DNA of 64,000 nucleotides from Candidatus Saccharimonadales bacterium (GCA_041737385.1 JBGSRU010000009.1:71015-135014); one strand, 5' to 3'. Shown: positions 26,562 to 48,740, counted from the first letter of the stretch. The notes: generated from the sequence alone by a model not told the origin. Numbers and translations: made by a program.

Positions 26562-27365
26562 ATGAGCGATACAAAAAAAAGTTTAGGACAGCATTGGCTT
26601 AAAGATACAGCGGTTTTACATGCAATTGTGGAAGCTGCGGAAATAAAAGAAGCCGATGAGGTATTAGAAATTGGTCCAGGACTAGGAACGTTAACTGATG
26701 TACTAGTAGAAAAGCAAGCAAATATTTTGTCACTAGAATTCGACCAAGATCTTATAAAACAGCTTAAAGCAAAGTATGTGAATCGTCACAATGTTACTAT
26801 TATAGAAGGAGATATACGTTCGTTTGACTATAATAGCCTTCCGAAACAATACAAAATTGTTGCAAATATACCCTATTACTTAACAAGTCATCTCGTACGA
26901 GCAATTAGCGAAACAGATAACATGCCAAGTGTTGCGGTGCTGTTAATACAAAAAGAAGTTGCTCAGAGAATTTGTGCACTTCCCGGAAAGATGGGCATCT
27001 TGTCTGTTACTGCCCAATTTTATTTTGAGTGTAGTCTAGATATAGAAGTTCCAGCGCGGCTATTCGCTCCACCACCAAAAGTAGACTCACAAGTCGTTGT
27101 GTTAACGAGTCGATCTACTAAACTTTTTGATGTCGACGAAAAGTCATTCTTTAAGCTTGTAAAAGCAGGATTTTCTGAAAAGCGTAAAACTCTACGTAAT
27201 AGTTTGAGCAGTGGCCTAGGGATTAGCAAGGATGACGCGGTGATTTTACTAGAGAAGGCAGGGCTCAACCCAAAATATCGTGCTCAGCAGCTGTCTCTTG
27301 ATGATTGGCATAGCTTACATATTGTGCACAGTAATGGTTATGTTTCGTCACCAAAAGTGCTATAA
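26562..27365 (+). CDS. rsmA: 16S rRNA (adenine1518/1519-N6)-dimethyltransferase
   Basis: KSLGQHWL..., the SAM motif VLEIGPGLGTLT, and ANIPYYLTS are typical of KsgA/RsmA. Confidence 0.9.
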   Translation: MSDTKKSLGQHWLKDTAVLHAIVEAAEIKEADEVLEIGPGLGTLTDVLVEKQANILSLEFDQDLIKQLKAKYVNRHNVTIIEGDIRSFDYNSLPKQYKIVANIPYYLTSHLVRAISETDNMPSVAVLLIQKEVAQRICALPGKMGILSVTAQFYFECSLDIEVPARLFAPPPKVDSQVVVLTSRSTKLFDVDEKSFFKLVKAGFSEKRKTLRNSLSSGLGISKDDAVILLEKAGLNPKYRAQQLSLDDWHSLHIVHSNGYVSSPKVL

Positions 27366-34044: not shown

Positions 34045-34098
34045 TAATTATCACTATACGTCACTTCAACGAAATAAGCATAAGTTTAAAATTAAAAA

Positions 34099-34116
34099 CC
34101 TCATCTTACGATGAGG
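34099..34116 (-). terminator. rho-independent terminator on the minus strand, 9 nt after a ...GCTCCACCA sequence
   Basis: The minus strand reads CCTCATC-GTAA-GATGAGG followed by TTTTTAATTTT. Confidence 0.65.
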
Positions 34117-34504
34117 CATTTAATTTGGTGGAGCATCTACTGAATAATTGGCACCTTATTGAGGAAGAACTGAGGTTATGGTATGATCTTTTGCCTCGTA
34201 AGGGCACTCTCATAACCTGTTAACTACTCACTGTTAAGTAAGGCACCTGTCTCAAGTAACTGCTTCCGCCCTTCAACTGTCCAATAACAGACATTTTACC
34301 AATCTACTTGAGGGTATCTTAAATTAAACAGTTTCTTTGAAATTATTCTCGTTACTAAGCTTTATTGTTGTTAAATAAATGGAGTTAAATGATATATTGG
34401 TATGTTTTTTACTGCTTGAATTTAATACCTAAAATCATTATTAAAAAAGTCTTCGAGTTTAAATTTGATTAACTTCTTTCACTTACTTATTTTTGTATAG
34501 TTCT

Positions 34505-34526
34505 TGACCCACCTTTGACCCACCTT
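34505..34526. repeat. perfect tandem duplication of an 11-bp unit (TGACCCACCTT x2)
   Basis: Read directly: ttcTTGACCCACCTTTGACCCACCTTtaca. It lies just downstream of the XRE gene stop. Confidence 0.8.
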
Positions 34527-34543
34527 TACACAACCCAAGCAAA

Positions 34544-34771
34544 CTATAATTTCTTGAACAATTCTTCTAAACTTATATTTAACGATCTAGTGATTTTGTA
34601 GAGTGTACTAAGTGTAGGCCTTCTTCTTCCTTGCTCAATAAATCCTAAATGTGAGCGATCAATACCACTGTCACTCGCGAGTAACTCCTGAGACATGTTT
34701 TTATTTCTACGATACTTTACAATTCGGGCACCGATTTCTCTATAAAGCTTGTCAATATTTGCAGTAGACAT
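34544..34771 (-). CDS. XRE family helix-turn-helix regulator
   Basis: MSQELLASDSGIDRSHLGFIEQGRRRPTL HTH core in a 75-aa protein. Confidence 0.8.
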   Translation of the reverse strand: MSTANIDKLYREIGARIVKYRRNKNMSQELLASDSGIDRSHLGFIEQGRRRPTLSTLYKITRSLNISLEELFKKL

Positions 34772-34872
34772 ACCTTCAGACTAATGATTACATATGTAAG
34801 TAACCACTGACATTTGTCATCATTCATTTTAACCGATATAATGCAACTATTAGTTAACTAAGGAGACGAGAA

Positions 34873-35445
34873 GTGAACAATAAAATACTAGGTTGGATAT
34901 TTGCTTCCGTATCAATACTCTTTCTAATTTTTGCAATTACCTATCAACCAGGCGGAAACGAAGAGGTTTCTACAGCTACCCAGACAGTATCGAAAGGTTC
35001 TCATGATAGTTCAAAAGTAAACGAATCACCCTCAAACAATTCACAAATAAAAACCGATAACTATAAATACTTAACTGGATTTACTTTTAACTCAAGTATA
35101 TCGGAAGGACTCTACAGCTATACGACTTCTGAAAAAGGGAATCAGTATTCAGTTTCTCTAAATACTAAGGCTCAAGAAAGTTCTGGAATCCATGATGAAA
35201 GCTACCCTTTAGAAAGGACAAAAACTAACATAGGAAGCTCTCAAATAGAATATGGGTATAATGAAGATTTTTCTATTGAAGACGAAGTGCTAACTCCAGC
35301 ATATTCTTCTATTTCATTCGACATGACAATCAATAGCATTAGCTATACGGGCGAAATTACTAATTTACTGTCTGAAGCGTCTAAACAGCCACTATATGAA
35401 ATATTAGTTAGGCTAACAAAATCAATACAAGTTAGTTTAGAATAA
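34873..35445 (+). CDS. membrane-anchored/secreted protein of unknown function
   Basis: GTG start after AAGGAGA. N-terminal TM/signal anchor (ILGWIFASVSILFLIFAI), then a Ser/Thr/Asn-rich domain. Confidence 0.5.
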   Translation: MNNKILGWIFASVSILFLIFAITYQPGGNEEVSTATQTVSKGSHDSSKVNESPSNNSQIKTDNYKYLTGFTFNSSISEGLYSYTTSEKGNQYSVSLNTKAQESSGIHDESYPLERTKTNIGSSQIEYGYNEDFSIEDEVLTPAYSSISFDMTINSISYTGEITNLLSEASKQPLYEILVRLTKSIQVSLE

Positions 35446-35496
35446 TTATTTGACTATGAATGGGTTCAGGTAATACTATGATCTAAGCTGTTCATG

Positions 35497-35538
35497 AGAC
35501 CAACACGCAAATGTAATGTTTTCTGTTGGTCTTTTTTG
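35497..35538 (+). terminator. rho-independent terminator
   Basis: 9-bp stem AGACCAACA / TGTTGGTCT followed by TTTTTTG. Confidence 0.6.
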
Positions 35539-35732
35539 ATCCACGGCATCATTCTAATGATGGTTTCGAGGTCAAATAAGTGCCTGAGAATATAAGTAAA
35601 AATCCAACAAAACAAGAGCTACTAGAGATAGCTAATTTTTTGTATGAAAGATATGAAAAGAAGAAACAAAAAAATGGTATTAAAGATAAACAAATGAATG
35701 GATGACATGCAATCAATCATAAACACAATATT

Positions 35733-35789
35733 ACTAAAGACGATTTCTTATATCGTTGCATGCGGTCCATTCAAGAAATCGTCTTTAGT
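35733..35789. repeat. perfect 17-bp inverted repeat in the integrase 5' leader
   Basis: ACTAAAGACGATTTCTT (35733-35749) and AAGAAATCGTCTTTAGT (35773-35789) are exact reverse complements, separated by 23 nt. The repeat ends 17 nt before the ATG at 35807. Confidence 0.85.
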
Positions 35790-35806
35790 GAGTAAGGTGT
35801 TTTTGT

Positions 35807-37471
35807 ATGAAAGATCAAGCAATAGCTTTGTGCAGAGTTTCAACTCCTGAACAAAAACTTAGTAATAGCTTAAATAGACAAGCCCAGTCAGTTATTGAAG
35901 CGGCAAAAAAGTTAAATGTCAAAATCATAGATACTTTTTCTGGAGATGCTTCAAGCAAAGTTGGCAAGAACTTTAATCGGCCAGACTTAGTCAAGGCTTA
36001 TTCAATAGCAAAAGCTAATAAAAGAGTAGGCTATTTGATTGTTGATGAAGTTGATAGATTTATGCGTAGTACAGAAGAAATGTTTTACTGGATTACGAGA
36101 CTAAAATATGAGCTCGGAGTAAAAGTATATTTTGCATCAAATCCAGAATTAAATTTTGATACTGCACAGTCGAGACTAATGCTTTCTCTCGACGGATTTA
36201 AAGCAGAAGGAAGTAATGAAGAGAGACAAAAGAAATCAATCAATGGTCATGTTCAGGCTATTAAGGAAGGACGTTATACTTTTCCACCTAAAACTGGTTA
36301 TAGAAAAGGAGAAAGAGCTGGAATTCATGTTAGGGATCCTGAGACGTTCACATACTTTCAAGTAGCTTTAAAAGAGATCATAGCTGGCGTCTATAATCCC
36401 ACAGAAGCACTTAACCGTTTAATGAAAACAAACTTCGGAAATATTTATAAAAGATTTGAAATGGACAAGTTCAGAAGATTTGCTACAGATCCTTATTATG
36501 CAGGTATCGTAGAAATCAATAAGCAAGTAATTGCTCGCAATGAAAACGGACTGCATGAAAAAATGATCACAATTGATGAACACGAACAGTTAAAAGCAAT
36601 ATTCAACGGGACCTATAAATCAAGAGGAAAGGCAAAGCATTACAATCCTGAATTTCCAATGAGCAAGATACTAGAGTGTTCGGAGTGCGGTGGAAAGTTT
36701 ACAGGTGCTAAGAAAAATAATGGGGTCAGAACCAATAGTGGAAACCTTAGAAAAAAAATAAATTACTACTTTAAATATAGATGTAGAGATTGTAAGAAAG
36801 AGTATCACCGTGATGAAGTCCATCACTCAATATCACAGCACCTGGATGGTATAGAGCCTCTAAATGAACTAGAAAGCTTTAAGGAAGCATTGGAAACTGT
36901 GTGGAGACAAAAGAATGGAGATAAGTTGAAACAAGTTTTAGGCTTAAAGAATCAGTTGAATCTACTTCAAGAAAAAAAGTCAAATTTAGTCATGTCAATA
37001 AGTTCAACACCTGATGATTTAAAGTCAGATATACATGAAGCGATCACTATTATTAAACAGCAGATACTTGATAAGAGTACAGAAATCGAGAACTCAAAGC
37101 CACTTACTGAAGAGATGAAAAACTTCATAGAGTATGGAATGAATTATACTAAAAATCTAAAAGAAGATTACTGGCAACTAGATTATGACGAACGTAAAAG
37201 GTGTCAACAATTATTGTTTAAAGGCGAATTATATATAAATTCTATGAAAAAAGTTGACACCCCGAAATTGAGTAGCTTTTACAGATACAAAATACAAAAG
37301 ACCAGTCCTAAAACTGGTCAAAATGTCTCTATGGTGGAGCTGGCGAGGTTCCGCCCCTCGCGTCCATTAGTGAACTCATTGGATGACTACAAGCTTATTT
37401 CGTTTAGCTGTCTTAGGTCGCAAAACTCTAAACGAACAAAATGTTATACGACAGCAACCTTGAAATCTTAG
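35807..37471 (+). CDS. large serine recombinase (integrase)
   Basis: Resolvase-type N-terminus (AIALCRVSTPEQ...VDRFMRS), recombinase domain, zinc ribbon (CSECGGKF...YRCRDCKK) and coiled coil. The last 140 nt are antisense to the tmRNA gene. Confidence 0.9.
   Translation: MKDQAIALCRVSTPEQKLSNSLNRQAQSVIEAAKKLNVKIIDTFSGDASSKVGKNFNRPDLVKAYSIAKANKRVGYLIVDEVDRFMRSTEEMFYWITRLKYELGVKVYFASNPELNFDTAQSRLMLSLDGFKAEGSNEERQKKSINGHVQAIKEGRYTFPPKTGYRKGERAGIHVRDPETFTYFQVALKEIIAGVYNPTEALNRLMKTNFGNIYKRFEMDKFRRFATDPYYAGIVEINKQVIARNENGLHEKMITIDEHEQLKAIFNGTYKSRGKAKHYNPEFPMSKILECSECGGKFTGAKKNNGVRTNSGNLRKKINYYFKYRCRDCKKEYHRDEVHHSISQHLDGIEPLNELESFKEALETVWRQKNGDKLKQVLGLKNQLNLLQEKKSNLVMSISSTPDDLKSDIHEAITIIKQQILDKSTEIENSKPLTEEMKNFIEYGMNYTKNLKEDYWQLDYDERKRCQQLLFKGELYINSMKKVDTPKLSSFYRYKIQKTSPKTGQNVSMVELARFRPSRPLVNSLDDYKLISFSCLRSQNSKRTKCYTTATLKS
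37300..37319 (-). terminator. intrinsic terminator for the tmRNA gene, embedded antisense inside the integrase ORF
   Basis: Downstream of the tmRNA CCA, the minus strand reads ...GACCAGT-TTTAGG-ACTGGTC followed by TTTTGTATTTTG. Confidence 0.55.
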
Positions 37472-37747
37472 ACCTCGTCCTAAGGTGGCGGACTTTGGTA
37501 GCAATCAGATGATATAAGACTCTGCTCTGTATCTGATGTCCAGAACAATGAGTCGCAAACTTAAATTAAGCTGCTAGTGCGAATTGCTCGTCACTTACTT
37601 TGAAGGGGTTTAGGCCTTGTAGGTAAGCGATAGCTGAATCGCTATCAAAAGATTTTGCATCTATTGTTTAATCCGACTAACGTGCAGATAAACCCGGCTT
37701 GCCATTCCAACTTGTTAAATCTAATGTCGAGCTTAAAATTCAGCCCC
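37332..37747 (-). ncRNA. ssrA: tmRNA (SsrA)
   Basis: The minus strand starts GGGGCTGAA and ends GGACGCGAGGGGCGGAACCTCGCCAGCTCCACCA, close to the E. coli ssrA 3' end ...GGACGCGGGTTCAACTCCCGCCAGCTCCACCA. The acceptor stem has the G3:U wobble. An internal reading frame (37566-37658) encodes AKSFDSDSAIAYLQGLNPFKVSDEQFALAA then a stop. Confidence 0.9.
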
Positions 37748-38062: not shown

Positions 38063-38242
38063 TGGCTCCTCCCAGAAAAAAGCTACATAACAAATCAGTG
38101 CGCCGAAAATGGTTCGGGCAACTGACTTGTTATCGACTGGGCGCTTTCAGCGCTATCCCAGTTCGAGTCACTGACGATGTCAGTCCAAAGAAAAAGCCCC
38201 ATGATGGATCATGAGACTATTTCTTTGGTGGCTCCTCCCAGA
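38063..38242. repeat. 14-bp direct repeat of the tRNA-Phe 3' acceptor/T-stem sequence flanking a 152-bp hairpin-rich spacer
   Basis: TGGCTCCTCCCAGA occurs at 38063-38076 and at 38229-38242, the latter inside the tRNA. Confidence 0.75.
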
Positions 38243-48663: not shown

Positions 48664-48740
48664 TGGTGCGGGTGAAGAGACTCTAACTCTCGACCTCATC
48701 CTTGGCAAGGATGCGCTCTAAACAACTGAGCTACACCCGC
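48664..48740 (-). tRNA. tRNA-Gly (anticodon GCC), CCA encoded
   Basis: Reverse complement: GCGGGTG-TA-GCTCAGTTGTTTAGAGC-G-CATCC-TTGCCAA-GGATG-AGGTC-GAGAG-TTAGAGT-CTCTT-CACCCGC-ACCA. Confidence 0.9.

Follow-up and report, generated by a model that had tools for sequence, protein, structure and literature searches.

A 3.2-kb serine-integrase island at the tmRNA 3' end of a Saccharibacteria-like bacterium, with a predicted integrase C-terminus that depends on the DNA state

What does a recombinase gene do at the very end of a tmRNA gene, and does its protein product change when the DNA around it is rearranged? The question is raised by a 64,000-nucleotide stretch from Candidatus Saccharimonadales bacterium (GCA_041737385.1 JBGSRU010000009.1:71015-135014), called the window here, in which the open reading frame (ORF) of a large serine recombinase (LSR) runs for its last 140 nt antisense to the gene for transfer-messenger RNA (tmRNA). 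A first-pass annotation of this DNA had proposed a serine-recombinase mini-island in the tmRNA gene, whose integrase would gain another C-terminus in the excised form. Our analysis leads, with a probability of about 0.8, to the reading that the interval from 34126/34135 to 37331/37340 is a 3206-bp integrative element, placed by the LSR at the extreme 3' end of the tmRNA gene in a Saccharibacteria-like host of the Candidate Phyla Radiation (CPR), with its attP inside the integrase gene. The features that carry this reading are the following (positions are counted from the first letter of the window; HMM, hidden Markov model).

34088-34117, minus strand: displaced native tmRNA terminator, B arm of attL (stem 34117-34098, T-tract 34097-34088; terminator scan)
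34126-34134: attL core, a copy of the last 9 nt of the tmRNA, TGGTGGAGC (exact match)
34134-34223, plus strand: predicted integrase tail exon (P' arm), 29 codons HLLNNWHLIEEELRLWYDLLPRKGTLITC followed by TAA (junction translation, tail HMM)
35807-37471, plus strand: large serine recombinase gene, 554 aa (ORF list, Pfam, PHROG, AlphaFold2)
37290-37319, minus strand: predicted element-borne replacement tmRNA terminator, stem 37319-37300 GACCAGTTTTAGGACTGGTC, then TTTTGTATTT (terminator scan)
37332-37340: attR core, the 3' terminus GCUCCACCA of the tmRNA gene in use (Rfam and exact match)
37332-37747, minus strand: tmRNA gene, the intact integration target (Rfam RF00023, 80 bits against a gathering score of 47, model positions 1-374)

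The tmRNA gene is full-length through the CCA at attR, its 3' end ...GCUCCACCA lying at 37332. It was called by Rfam alone and not by ARAGORN, which overlooked Saccharibacteria-type tmRNAs in the window as well as in six related loci (L007, L008, L033, L065, L107 and L108; 55-90 bits in Rfam). In the Rfam alignment, the window tmRNA also shows a long insertion past the tag region. The core TGGTGGAGC, which comprises the CCA end, the discriminator and the first acceptor-stem bases, stands on the plus strand at 34126-34134 and 37332-37340, and the duplicated terminus of the first-pass annotation is thereby confirmed by exact match and by the Rfam call. Three copies of this 9-mer were observed in the window against 0.23 expected, and none of 100 shuffles gave three. 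The third copy (27066-27074, minus strand) was rejected as a chance match within a coding region with an RsmA-like ...FAPPPKV... motif, unrelated to the island. The GC content is 31-36% between the two cores and 37-44% beyond them in the window. The definition of an integrative element used in PMC7192596 asks for attL and attR around at least one integrase gene, which the locus has, and for an uninterrupted attB in a related genome. The locus also carries the marks of an island at a tRNA or tmRNA 3' end, namely a terminal sequence regenerated at attR and a displaced terminus with its terminator at attL.

The same kind of repeat bounds the islands of relatives, with lengths of 9 nt in L010, 13 in L108, 12 in L011, 11 in L045, 9 in L005 and L009 and 10 in L007, and a TGGTGGAGC-type core flanks the islands in L010, L011, L045, L005, L009 and L108. 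A terminator of native appearance adjoins the left copy in each of these seven relatives. The annotation had asked whether its 9-bp match might have arisen by chance and would be missing from island boundaries in relatives; it does mark them there. Together with the terminator that adjoins the left copy, this supports its view of 34126-34134 as the displaced original tmRNA end. Such short identity blocks are compatible with the directional recombination of LSRs, which join dissimilar attP and attB at a 2-bp crossover and run in reverse with a directionality factor, and a dyad-symmetry scan of the reconstructed attP and attB gave no convincing centre for the crossover dinucleotide.

The strong intrinsic terminator that had been noticed beside the left core was recovered by the terminator scan at 34117-34088. 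It reads GCCTCATC-GTAA-GATGAGGT followed by TTTTTAATTTT, begins 8-9 nt past the left core on the minus strand and has 8 pairs, a GTAA loop and a TTTTTAATTT tail; in L010 and L108, a native-looking hairpin with a T-run directly adjoins the left core as well. The second terminator lies 12 nt downstream of the tmRNA CCA, antisense within integrase codons ~495-505. A hairpin of -5 kcal/mol or stronger with a T-run, at most 75 nt from the tRNA or tmRNA end, was found in 53 of 55 integrated loci, compared with 32 of 550 control windows (6%) taken antisense from the interior of the same integrase genes. In the examples listed, the replacement hairpin starts ~13 nt past the RNA-gene end, and many have UUCG loops; the T-tract on the antisense strand is supplied by family-conserved ...NKKD... 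codons, and a circular relative (L004, described below) also bears the antisense terminator. From these predicted structures, the element, which displaces the native terminator of the RNA gene, appears to bring a substitute with it.

The integrase itself has the build of an LSR. The Resolvase domain PF00239 covers residues 5-157 (Pfam, E 3.8e-18), with a CRVSTPEQ motif and an S12 nearly invariant across the family, as expected of a serine-nucleophile catalytic domain, and PHROG 95 integrase matches at E 2.6e-42. The Recombinase domain PF07508 gave no Pfam match at E<=0.01 in the window integrase and is present by precomputed annotation in several homologues; it is visible at residues ~181-266 in AlphaFold2 models. 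The Zn_ribbon_recom match is weak (18.4 bits, under the 25.3 cut-off); C294, C326 and C329 are conserved, and beta strands at 289-351 are followed in the model by long helices at 356-470, the order of a zinc ribbon and coiled coil. Models were made of the reconstructed excised isoform of the window and of the homologue P0039 (mean predicted local distance difference test, pLDDT, 87.7 and 82.4, respectively), and in both a catalytic domain and a long helix E are followed by the recombinase domain, the zinc ribbon, a helical coiled-coil region of ~110 residues and two closing strands. Next come a disordered linker at ~500-515, which spans the codons of the terminator and the core, and, at 517-530, a helix formed by the tail. 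By Foldseek, the whole chain of the P0039 model aligns to LSR structures from cryo-electron microscopy (9dxd/9dxf/9dxh, Bxb1 9iu2, phiC31 9rah) and to the crystal structure 4kis, with ~550 columns and E values of 1e-15 to 1e-9 for 9dxd, 9iu2 and 4kis, while a sequence search of the integrase against the PDB with phmmer gave no match, the solved LSRs being too distant.

The integrase has 618 homologues at E<=1e-5; nearly all come from Saccharibacteria/Patescibacteria, and the named ones belong to Candidatus Saccharibacteria. Taking one genome per GTDB species gave 80 loci, almost all of them in metagenome-assembled genomes of Saccharibacteria/Patescibacteria, and in 54 of these ARAGORN called a tRNA or tmRNA gene on the opposite strand, with the integrase ORF terminating within its 3' end. 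The targets are tRNA-Gly(GCC) in 26 loci, tRNA-Lys in 9, tRNA-Arg in 6, tRNA-Glu in 4, tmRNA in 4, tRNA-Val in 2, tRNA-Gly(TCC) in 2 and tRNA-Ala in 1; Rfam added tmRNA targets in the genome loci L007, L008, L033 and L065 as well as in L107 and L108. The family is therefore a serine-integrase clade that specialises in the 3' termini of tRNA and tmRNA genes. Its islands vary in cargo and size between genomes.

What, then, does the enzyme look like when the island closes on itself? Codons 1-508 of the integrase precede the core, codons 509-511 (M-V-E) lie inside the right core, and codons 1-511 (up to 37339) are common to both DNA states. Codons 512-554 (LARFRPS...LKS) are tmRNA antisense and belong to the integrated state only. 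A junction after C37340/C34134 reads SMVE-HLLNNWHLIEEELRLWYDLLPRKGTLITC and then TAA at 34221-34223, so that the tail exon comes into the integrase frame only after attL x attR recombination and the predicted circular-state integrase has 540 aa. The frame that the first-pass annotation had predicted across the junction, open through 34223, was reproduced exactly by this translation.

The same test was applied to each integrated locus, where a repeat of the tRNA or tmRNA terminus was sought upstream of the integrase and the frame was translated across the hypothetical junction. When the integrase frame is joined across the copy of the tRNA or tmRNA end that lies upstream, more than 25 loci yield a family tail of roughly NWHxIxxELxRWxxLLxxPW/Y. 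Junction tails were obtained for ten tmRNA-type loci (L005, L007, L009, L010, L011, L033, L045, L054, L107 and L108). Those of L011, L045 and L054 follow the pattern of the others, which are given here after the core.

Window, identity 9 nt, island 3206 bp: HLLNNWHLIEEELRLWYDLLPRKG
L010, identity 9 nt, island 3221 bp: QVVDSWHPLLNEVARWRSFLNLQY
L108, identity 13 nt, island 3068 bp: LIEKNWHPLHDELIRWRELLAGPW
L005, identity 9 nt: HVQKNWHQINEELGRWRELLSVPW
L009, identity 9 nt: HVQNNWHQIYAELGRWKDILLIPW
L007, identity 10 nt: LVRDNWHRLTQEQGRWKNILAVDW
L033: LVLKNWHLLESELRRWEEILRVEW
L107: RVQILWPQIVDELRQWRLILLVPW

The window tail aligns to the tmRNA-type tails without gaps through NWH, EL, W and LL, and the same core motif is found in the tRNA-Gly, -Lys and -Arg subfamilies (e.g., YLGEKLHEIGAEISRWRDILAVPYKEY and TTPEVYTRLKQEGRRWRELLDPMYREY). 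The C-termini of the homologues fall into classes. One, ...S(L/M)MVEL(A/V/R)G(T/I)AP.S..., is antisense of the tmRNA 3' end; a second, ...LVRV(R/K)(G/R)L*, is antisense of a tRNA 3' end; a minority (P0019, P0033, P0039, P0061 and P0103) has a different tail, like the predicted excised tail of the window. It had been stated beforehand that homologues ending like the integrated version would speak against the alternative C-terminus. Most of them do end in this way, but those ends are merely the antisense of the occupied RNA gene (MVELAGTAPAS for tmRNA, LVRVRGL* for tRNA-Gly), and the comparison with homologues uncovered a family-conserved tail encoded at the far end of the island, which is in frame only after circularisation.

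Two profile searches were aimed at this tail. As an unbiased test, 85 sequences translated in six frames (2.26 M aa) were searched with an HMM built from five database free tails only. The 74 matches at E<=1, in 61 loci, all lie on the integrase strand, and all 70 of the matches listed are either upstream of the integrase or at its own 3' end. Among 42 tail matches in loci with a called target, 27 directly follow, in frame, 5-18 nt identical to the tRNA or tmRNA terminus, and the remaining ones are mostly failures of the simple block finder. A second HMM, built from 28 relatives with the window left out, was searched in the six frames of the 64-kb window, and its best match is 34134-34193 (E 0.011; next best 0.48). 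A side observation concerns an unrelated tail type, xYR(I/T)YxNFLxxLW, which stands behind a tRNA-Gly core in L027 (~1769), L030 (~11540) and L036 (~11530) and in the proteins P0113 and P0119, and which may mark the left boundary of elements from another family that share the site.

The joined form is present in L004, a scaffold from ENA that is 4719 bp long, whose two ends overlap exactly over 25 nt and which has neither a tRNA nor a tmRNA. The integrase encoded there (P0039) reads TGGTGGAGCT and then the tail LIEKSWHSIEQEISRWRSLLVVPY, and the scaffold is the expected excised form of a tmRNA-targeting relative. In L001, a second tail exon lies upstream; this resembles a tandem array, with the tail being provided by the following element, and therefore the free tails of the database are not all circles. 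Some integrase genes have the tail exon of another element behind them. Two or three tail exons per locus occur in L020, L022, L026 and L060, which suggests tandem arrays at one tRNA or tmRNA gene. The element-borne and native terminator arms are alike (caaaaaag and a hairpin), and this likeness might let attR act as a new attB. For the window element, the predicted circle junction would be GGTCAAAATGTCTCTATGGTGGAGCATCTACTGAATAATTGG, the predicted empty site would be GATGAGGCATTTAATTTGGTGGAGCTGGCGAGGTTCC, and a junction sequence expected under the proposed anatomy would include ...TCTCTATGGTGGAGCATCTACTG....

Could the tail be conserved without being a working part of the protein? The island would then be real and attP would overlap the end of the integrase gene, the conservation being that of P' arm DNA bound by the recombinase. 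Half-sites of LSR attP reach ~25 bp from the crossover and would cover the sequence near the core, where the window, L010, L011 and L004 share the nucleotides TTGGCAC, coding for W-H, at a distance of 14-20 nt from the core; part of the tail conservation is likely at the DNA level there. AlphaFold2 also leaves the tail unplaced, with a helix of pLDDT 52-65 docked on no domain in P0039 and in the window excised isoform, and therefore the structure gives no hint of tail function. However, the conserved RW, LL and PY/PW lie 42-70 nt from the core, outside such a half-site. Across 28 tails, the third codon positions vary most (0.44/0.41/0.60 differences per codon position), 46% of the identical residues are written with different codons, and the integrase frame alone stays open, for a median of 33.5 codons and never fewer than 27, while the medians of the two remaining frames are 8.5 and 3.5. 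The motif is moreover kept across subfamilies with different targets and hence different att DNA. A tail conserved as DNA alone is thus improbable, and these codon patterns argue for conservation at the protein level across the family. The tail exon could also be expressed by itself from attL, as a peptide of ~31 aa that starts at the core TTG/GTG and acts in trans on the tail-less integrase. The core always puts xTG-GTG in the frame of the tail, no stop interrupts the fragment from 34038 on, and in the window TTG 34125 and GTG 34128 lie 9-12 nt after a GAGG at 34112-34115. This GAGG is merely the stem of the terminator, though, no promoter-like site stands upstream on the plus strand, the nearest gene is on the opposite strand and nothing sets such a peptide apart from the simpler reading, so that we give it very little credence.

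Besides the DNA-level conservation near the core and the undocked helix, several results weigh against a mobile element with a second integrase C-terminus. On the circle and the empty site called for by the first-pass annotation, the circular relative L004, with its tail attached, speaks in favour of the prediction, but neither a circle junction nor an empty site was found for the window element. A 35-nt tmRNA 3' end gave 0 matches in JGI metagenome contigs; the nearest orthologues of the DUF7347 gene in the left flank share no more than 53% identity with it and, in L085 and L086, have no tmRNA beside them, and therefore synteny gave no attB. Just one circular relative was seen, the other free-tail proteins being in linear contigs, at least one of which is a tandem array. 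The window tail is a weak member of the motif, with L for R before W, no PW/PY and 13 bits, and it could be decaying. A genuine family member may therefore be an immobile relic in this genome, whose alternative C-terminus is never made here, and the minimal cargo with no replication or transfer gene would agree with this. Yet the integrase ORF is intact with every family-invariant residue present, no earlier stop interrupts the tail exon, the two cores match perfectly and each terminator is whole. The islands of L010 and L108 have the same size and minimal layout, and therefore small size is normal for the family. We regard such a relic as possible but doubtful. That the 9-nt repeat arose by chance and the recombinase is a chromosomal gene abutting the tmRNA is scarcely conceivable: the low expected number of copies and the unrelated third copy leave some room for it, but it is contradicted by the family comparison, in which the architecture, and often the core too, recurs in dozens of independent loci, and by the conserved tail exon exactly behind the left copy, the GC dip inside the limits and the terminator beside each copy.

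How might an integrative element of this design work? On the plus strand, the predicted order of modules is integrase codons 1-508, with the antisense hairpin and T-tract in the last ~15 of them, then the core, then a tail exon of ~29 codons. Integration would part the tail exon from the gene, and the integrated copy would give an integrase with a meaningless tmRNA-antisense end. The circular copy would give the 540-aa integrase with its conserved, probably helical tail. The antisense hairpin and T-tract would end tmRNA transcription once the native terminator sits 3.2 kb off. The tail can be translated only with an intact attP, i.e., from a circle or a tandem array, and selection on it would therefore act on the episome; this suggests a role in integrating or in preventing the reversal. 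The integrated integrase ORFs are mostly intact across the family and one relative is circular, so the tail-less enzyme is probably the excision enzyme. We tentatively propose, from these sequence patterns, that the tail may serve the episomal step (attP x attB, or a block of its reversal) and that the tail-less form may excise, possibly helped by a small ORF upstream of the integrase gene; the odds are somewhat against this. A bolder version, which we hold with more reserve, is that the DNA state encodes directionality, with the tailed enzyme used for attP x attB and the tail-less one for excision, perhaps with the small ORF, and no separately regulated directionality factor needed by such minimal 3-kb elements. 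In addition, the 3' end of the integrase mRNA made in the integrated state is antisense to a tRNA or tmRNA that is abundant, and pairing may damp expression and hold excision low.

The rest of the island consists of a short payload and a few non-coding features, as follows.

34506-34527: tandem 11-bp repeat GACCCACCTTT x2, 17 nt past the stop codon of the XRE gene (read from the sequence)
34544-34771, minus strand: XRE-family helix-turn-helix regulator, 75 aa (Pfam HTH_3, E 8.4e-15; PHROG transcriptional regulators)
34873-35445, plus strand: cargo protein, 190 aa, with an N-terminal hydrophobic segment, divergent from the XRE gene (ORF list)
35580-35705, plus strand: small conserved ORF, 41 aa, motif TKxELxEhAxxLYxRY (TKQELLEIANFLYERY; alignment with relatives)
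35733-35789: inverted repeat, 17 bp without mismatch around a 23-nt spacer, located after the small ORF and before the ribosome-binding site of the integrase gene (repeat search)

The minimal payload described by the first-pass annotation (an XRE repressor, one secreted protein and the integrase) holds as far as these three genes go. It had not listed the 41-aa ORF, and "repressor" and "secreted" are labels at the level of homology or composition. The 190-aa protein has no Pfam match and no homologue in 20 related islands, and a promoter-like site with 11 of 12 matches lies before its gene at 34814-34842. When the cargo of 21 islands was clustered, nothing was conserved save the small ORF upstream of the integrase. 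Its counterparts stand directly upstream of the integrase gene in L004, in L088 and in six tRNA-Gly islands (L012, L022, L026, L034, L038 and L052). It is a candidate accessory or directionality factor. Replication, transfer and virion genes were absent from the island by Pfam, PHROG and cargo comparison. Its PHROG matches are limited to the integrase and the XRE regulator, which does not make it a prophage, and IMG/VR gave no phage link, with just 2 family members there, both integrated at tRNA-Gly.

The tandem repeat GACCCACCTTT sits in a 320-bp AT-rich non-coding stretch from the tail exon to the XRE gene and is possibly a binding site. The 17-bp inverted repeat could be an attenuator or operator of the integrase gene. 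A 16-nt exact direct repeat, TTTTTGTATGAAAGAT, was also observed, of which the copy at 35637-35652 encodes FLYERY of the small ORF and the copy at 35800-35815 spans the integrase start codon; it has no counterpart in any of 54 related loci tested. A low-threshold Rfam scan of the island gave nothing credible apart from the tmRNA. In three related tmRNA islands, the LOOT RNA (Rfam RF03000, 66-82 bits) was found at 5046-5158 of L005, 9203-9313 of L007 and 9165-9280 of L108, each time 0.6-0.85 kb upstream of the integrase gene and on the other strand. The Rfam scan found no LOOT RNA in the window island. This orphan RNA motif may be cargo of the element family.

Some possible traces of other integrations were also observed. 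Between the tmRNA and tRNA-Phe, a 14-nt exact copy (TGGCTCCTCCCAGA) of the tRNA-Phe 3' half lies 166 bp downstream of the tRNA-Phe gene (38063-38076 and 38229-38242), which looks like the leftover att repeat of another, nearly deleted island. In L108, an additional tmRNA 3'-end fragment (TGGTGGAGCGGGCGGGTAC...) at 8262-8285, 200 bp beyond the attL of its island, suggests an older integration at the same tmRNA. The tRNA-Gly(GCC) gene of the window (48664-48740) belongs to the commonest target type of the integrase family and is apparently unoccupied, with no adjacent integrase homologue or tail exon.

Several known systems resemble parts of this arrangement. The catalytic, recombinase, zinc-ribbon and coiled-coil architecture and the short att core are those of large serine integrases such as phiC31, Bxb1, A118/LI, TP901-1 and SPbeta SprA. 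Unlike the serine integrases of phages and of integrative and conjugative elements (ICEs), the enzymes described here target the extreme 3' end of tRNA and tmRNA genes, have attP in the integrase ORF with the C-terminus set by the DNA state, and embed an antisense terminator in the integrase coding sequence; their elements are 3-8 kb in size, have no phage or conjugation genes and live in Saccharibacteria/Patescibacteria hosts. The SSV1-type integrases of archaea are tyrosine recombinases with attP in the integrase ORF, and integration in a tRNA gene alters their product, as the gene is split in two. They share with the present family the att site within the ORF and a product altered by integration, whereas here integration swaps just the last ~30 codons and leaves the catalytic and DNA-binding domains untouched.

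Islands at tRNA and tmRNA genes are also mobilised by tyrosine integrases (Williams, 2002, as cited in PMC12884075; Islander/TIGER, PMC7192596). Like them, the present islands insert at the 3' end with the gene restored, keep the integrase beside att and can be stacked at one site; unlike them, they use a serine enzyme and have identity blocks of only 6-13 nt, which start at the CCA end. According to Mageeney et al. (2020; PMC7192596), the use of a tRNA or tmRNA gene by serine integrases had been unreported until then, and candidates made up just 14 of 297. In the integration-dependent immunity of the mycobacteriophages BPs and Brujita (PMC4557955; Broussard et al., 2013), attP lies in a coding region and integration by a tyrosine integrase alters the C-terminus of the repressor, and hence its behaviour. 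The C-terminus of an element protein is likewise altered here, which is the serine integrase itself and not a repressor. Integrase control across att that depends on the DNA state is described for lambda sib retroregulation, ICEclc Pcirc and ICEKp1 promoter switching (PMC13023037). In these cases, as in the present one, sequence adjoining the integrase in one DNA state alters integrase output, but there it is transcription or mRNA stability that changes and here it would be the coding sequence of the enzyme. The state-dependent concept has analogues in SSV1-type split genes, mycobacteriophage immunity, lambda sib and ICE promoter switching. No published description of the Saccharibacteria integrase family, or of a serine-integrase C-terminus that depends on the DNA state, was found among open-access papers and bioRxiv. 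New here are the antisense replacement terminator in the 3' coding region of the integrase and the small conserved ORF before its gene.

The design, an integrase gene that runs across its own attachment site, is common to hundreds of unstudied elements in Saccharibacteria-like bacteria. They form a large clade, seemingly common in Saccharibacteria, which is specialised for the last bases of genes that serine integrases were thought to avoid (PMC7192596). In practical terms, these are compact integrases with natural and highly conserved attB sites in a phylum short of genetic tools, and the tail exon with its core is a sharp computational marker of island boundaries in CPR genomes. Three functions overlap in ~150 nt, namely the integrase C-terminus, the antisense terminator of a host RNA and attP, and the switch between two integrase isoforms offers a testable hypothesis of how these elements might set the direction of recombination without a classical, separately regulated directionality factor.

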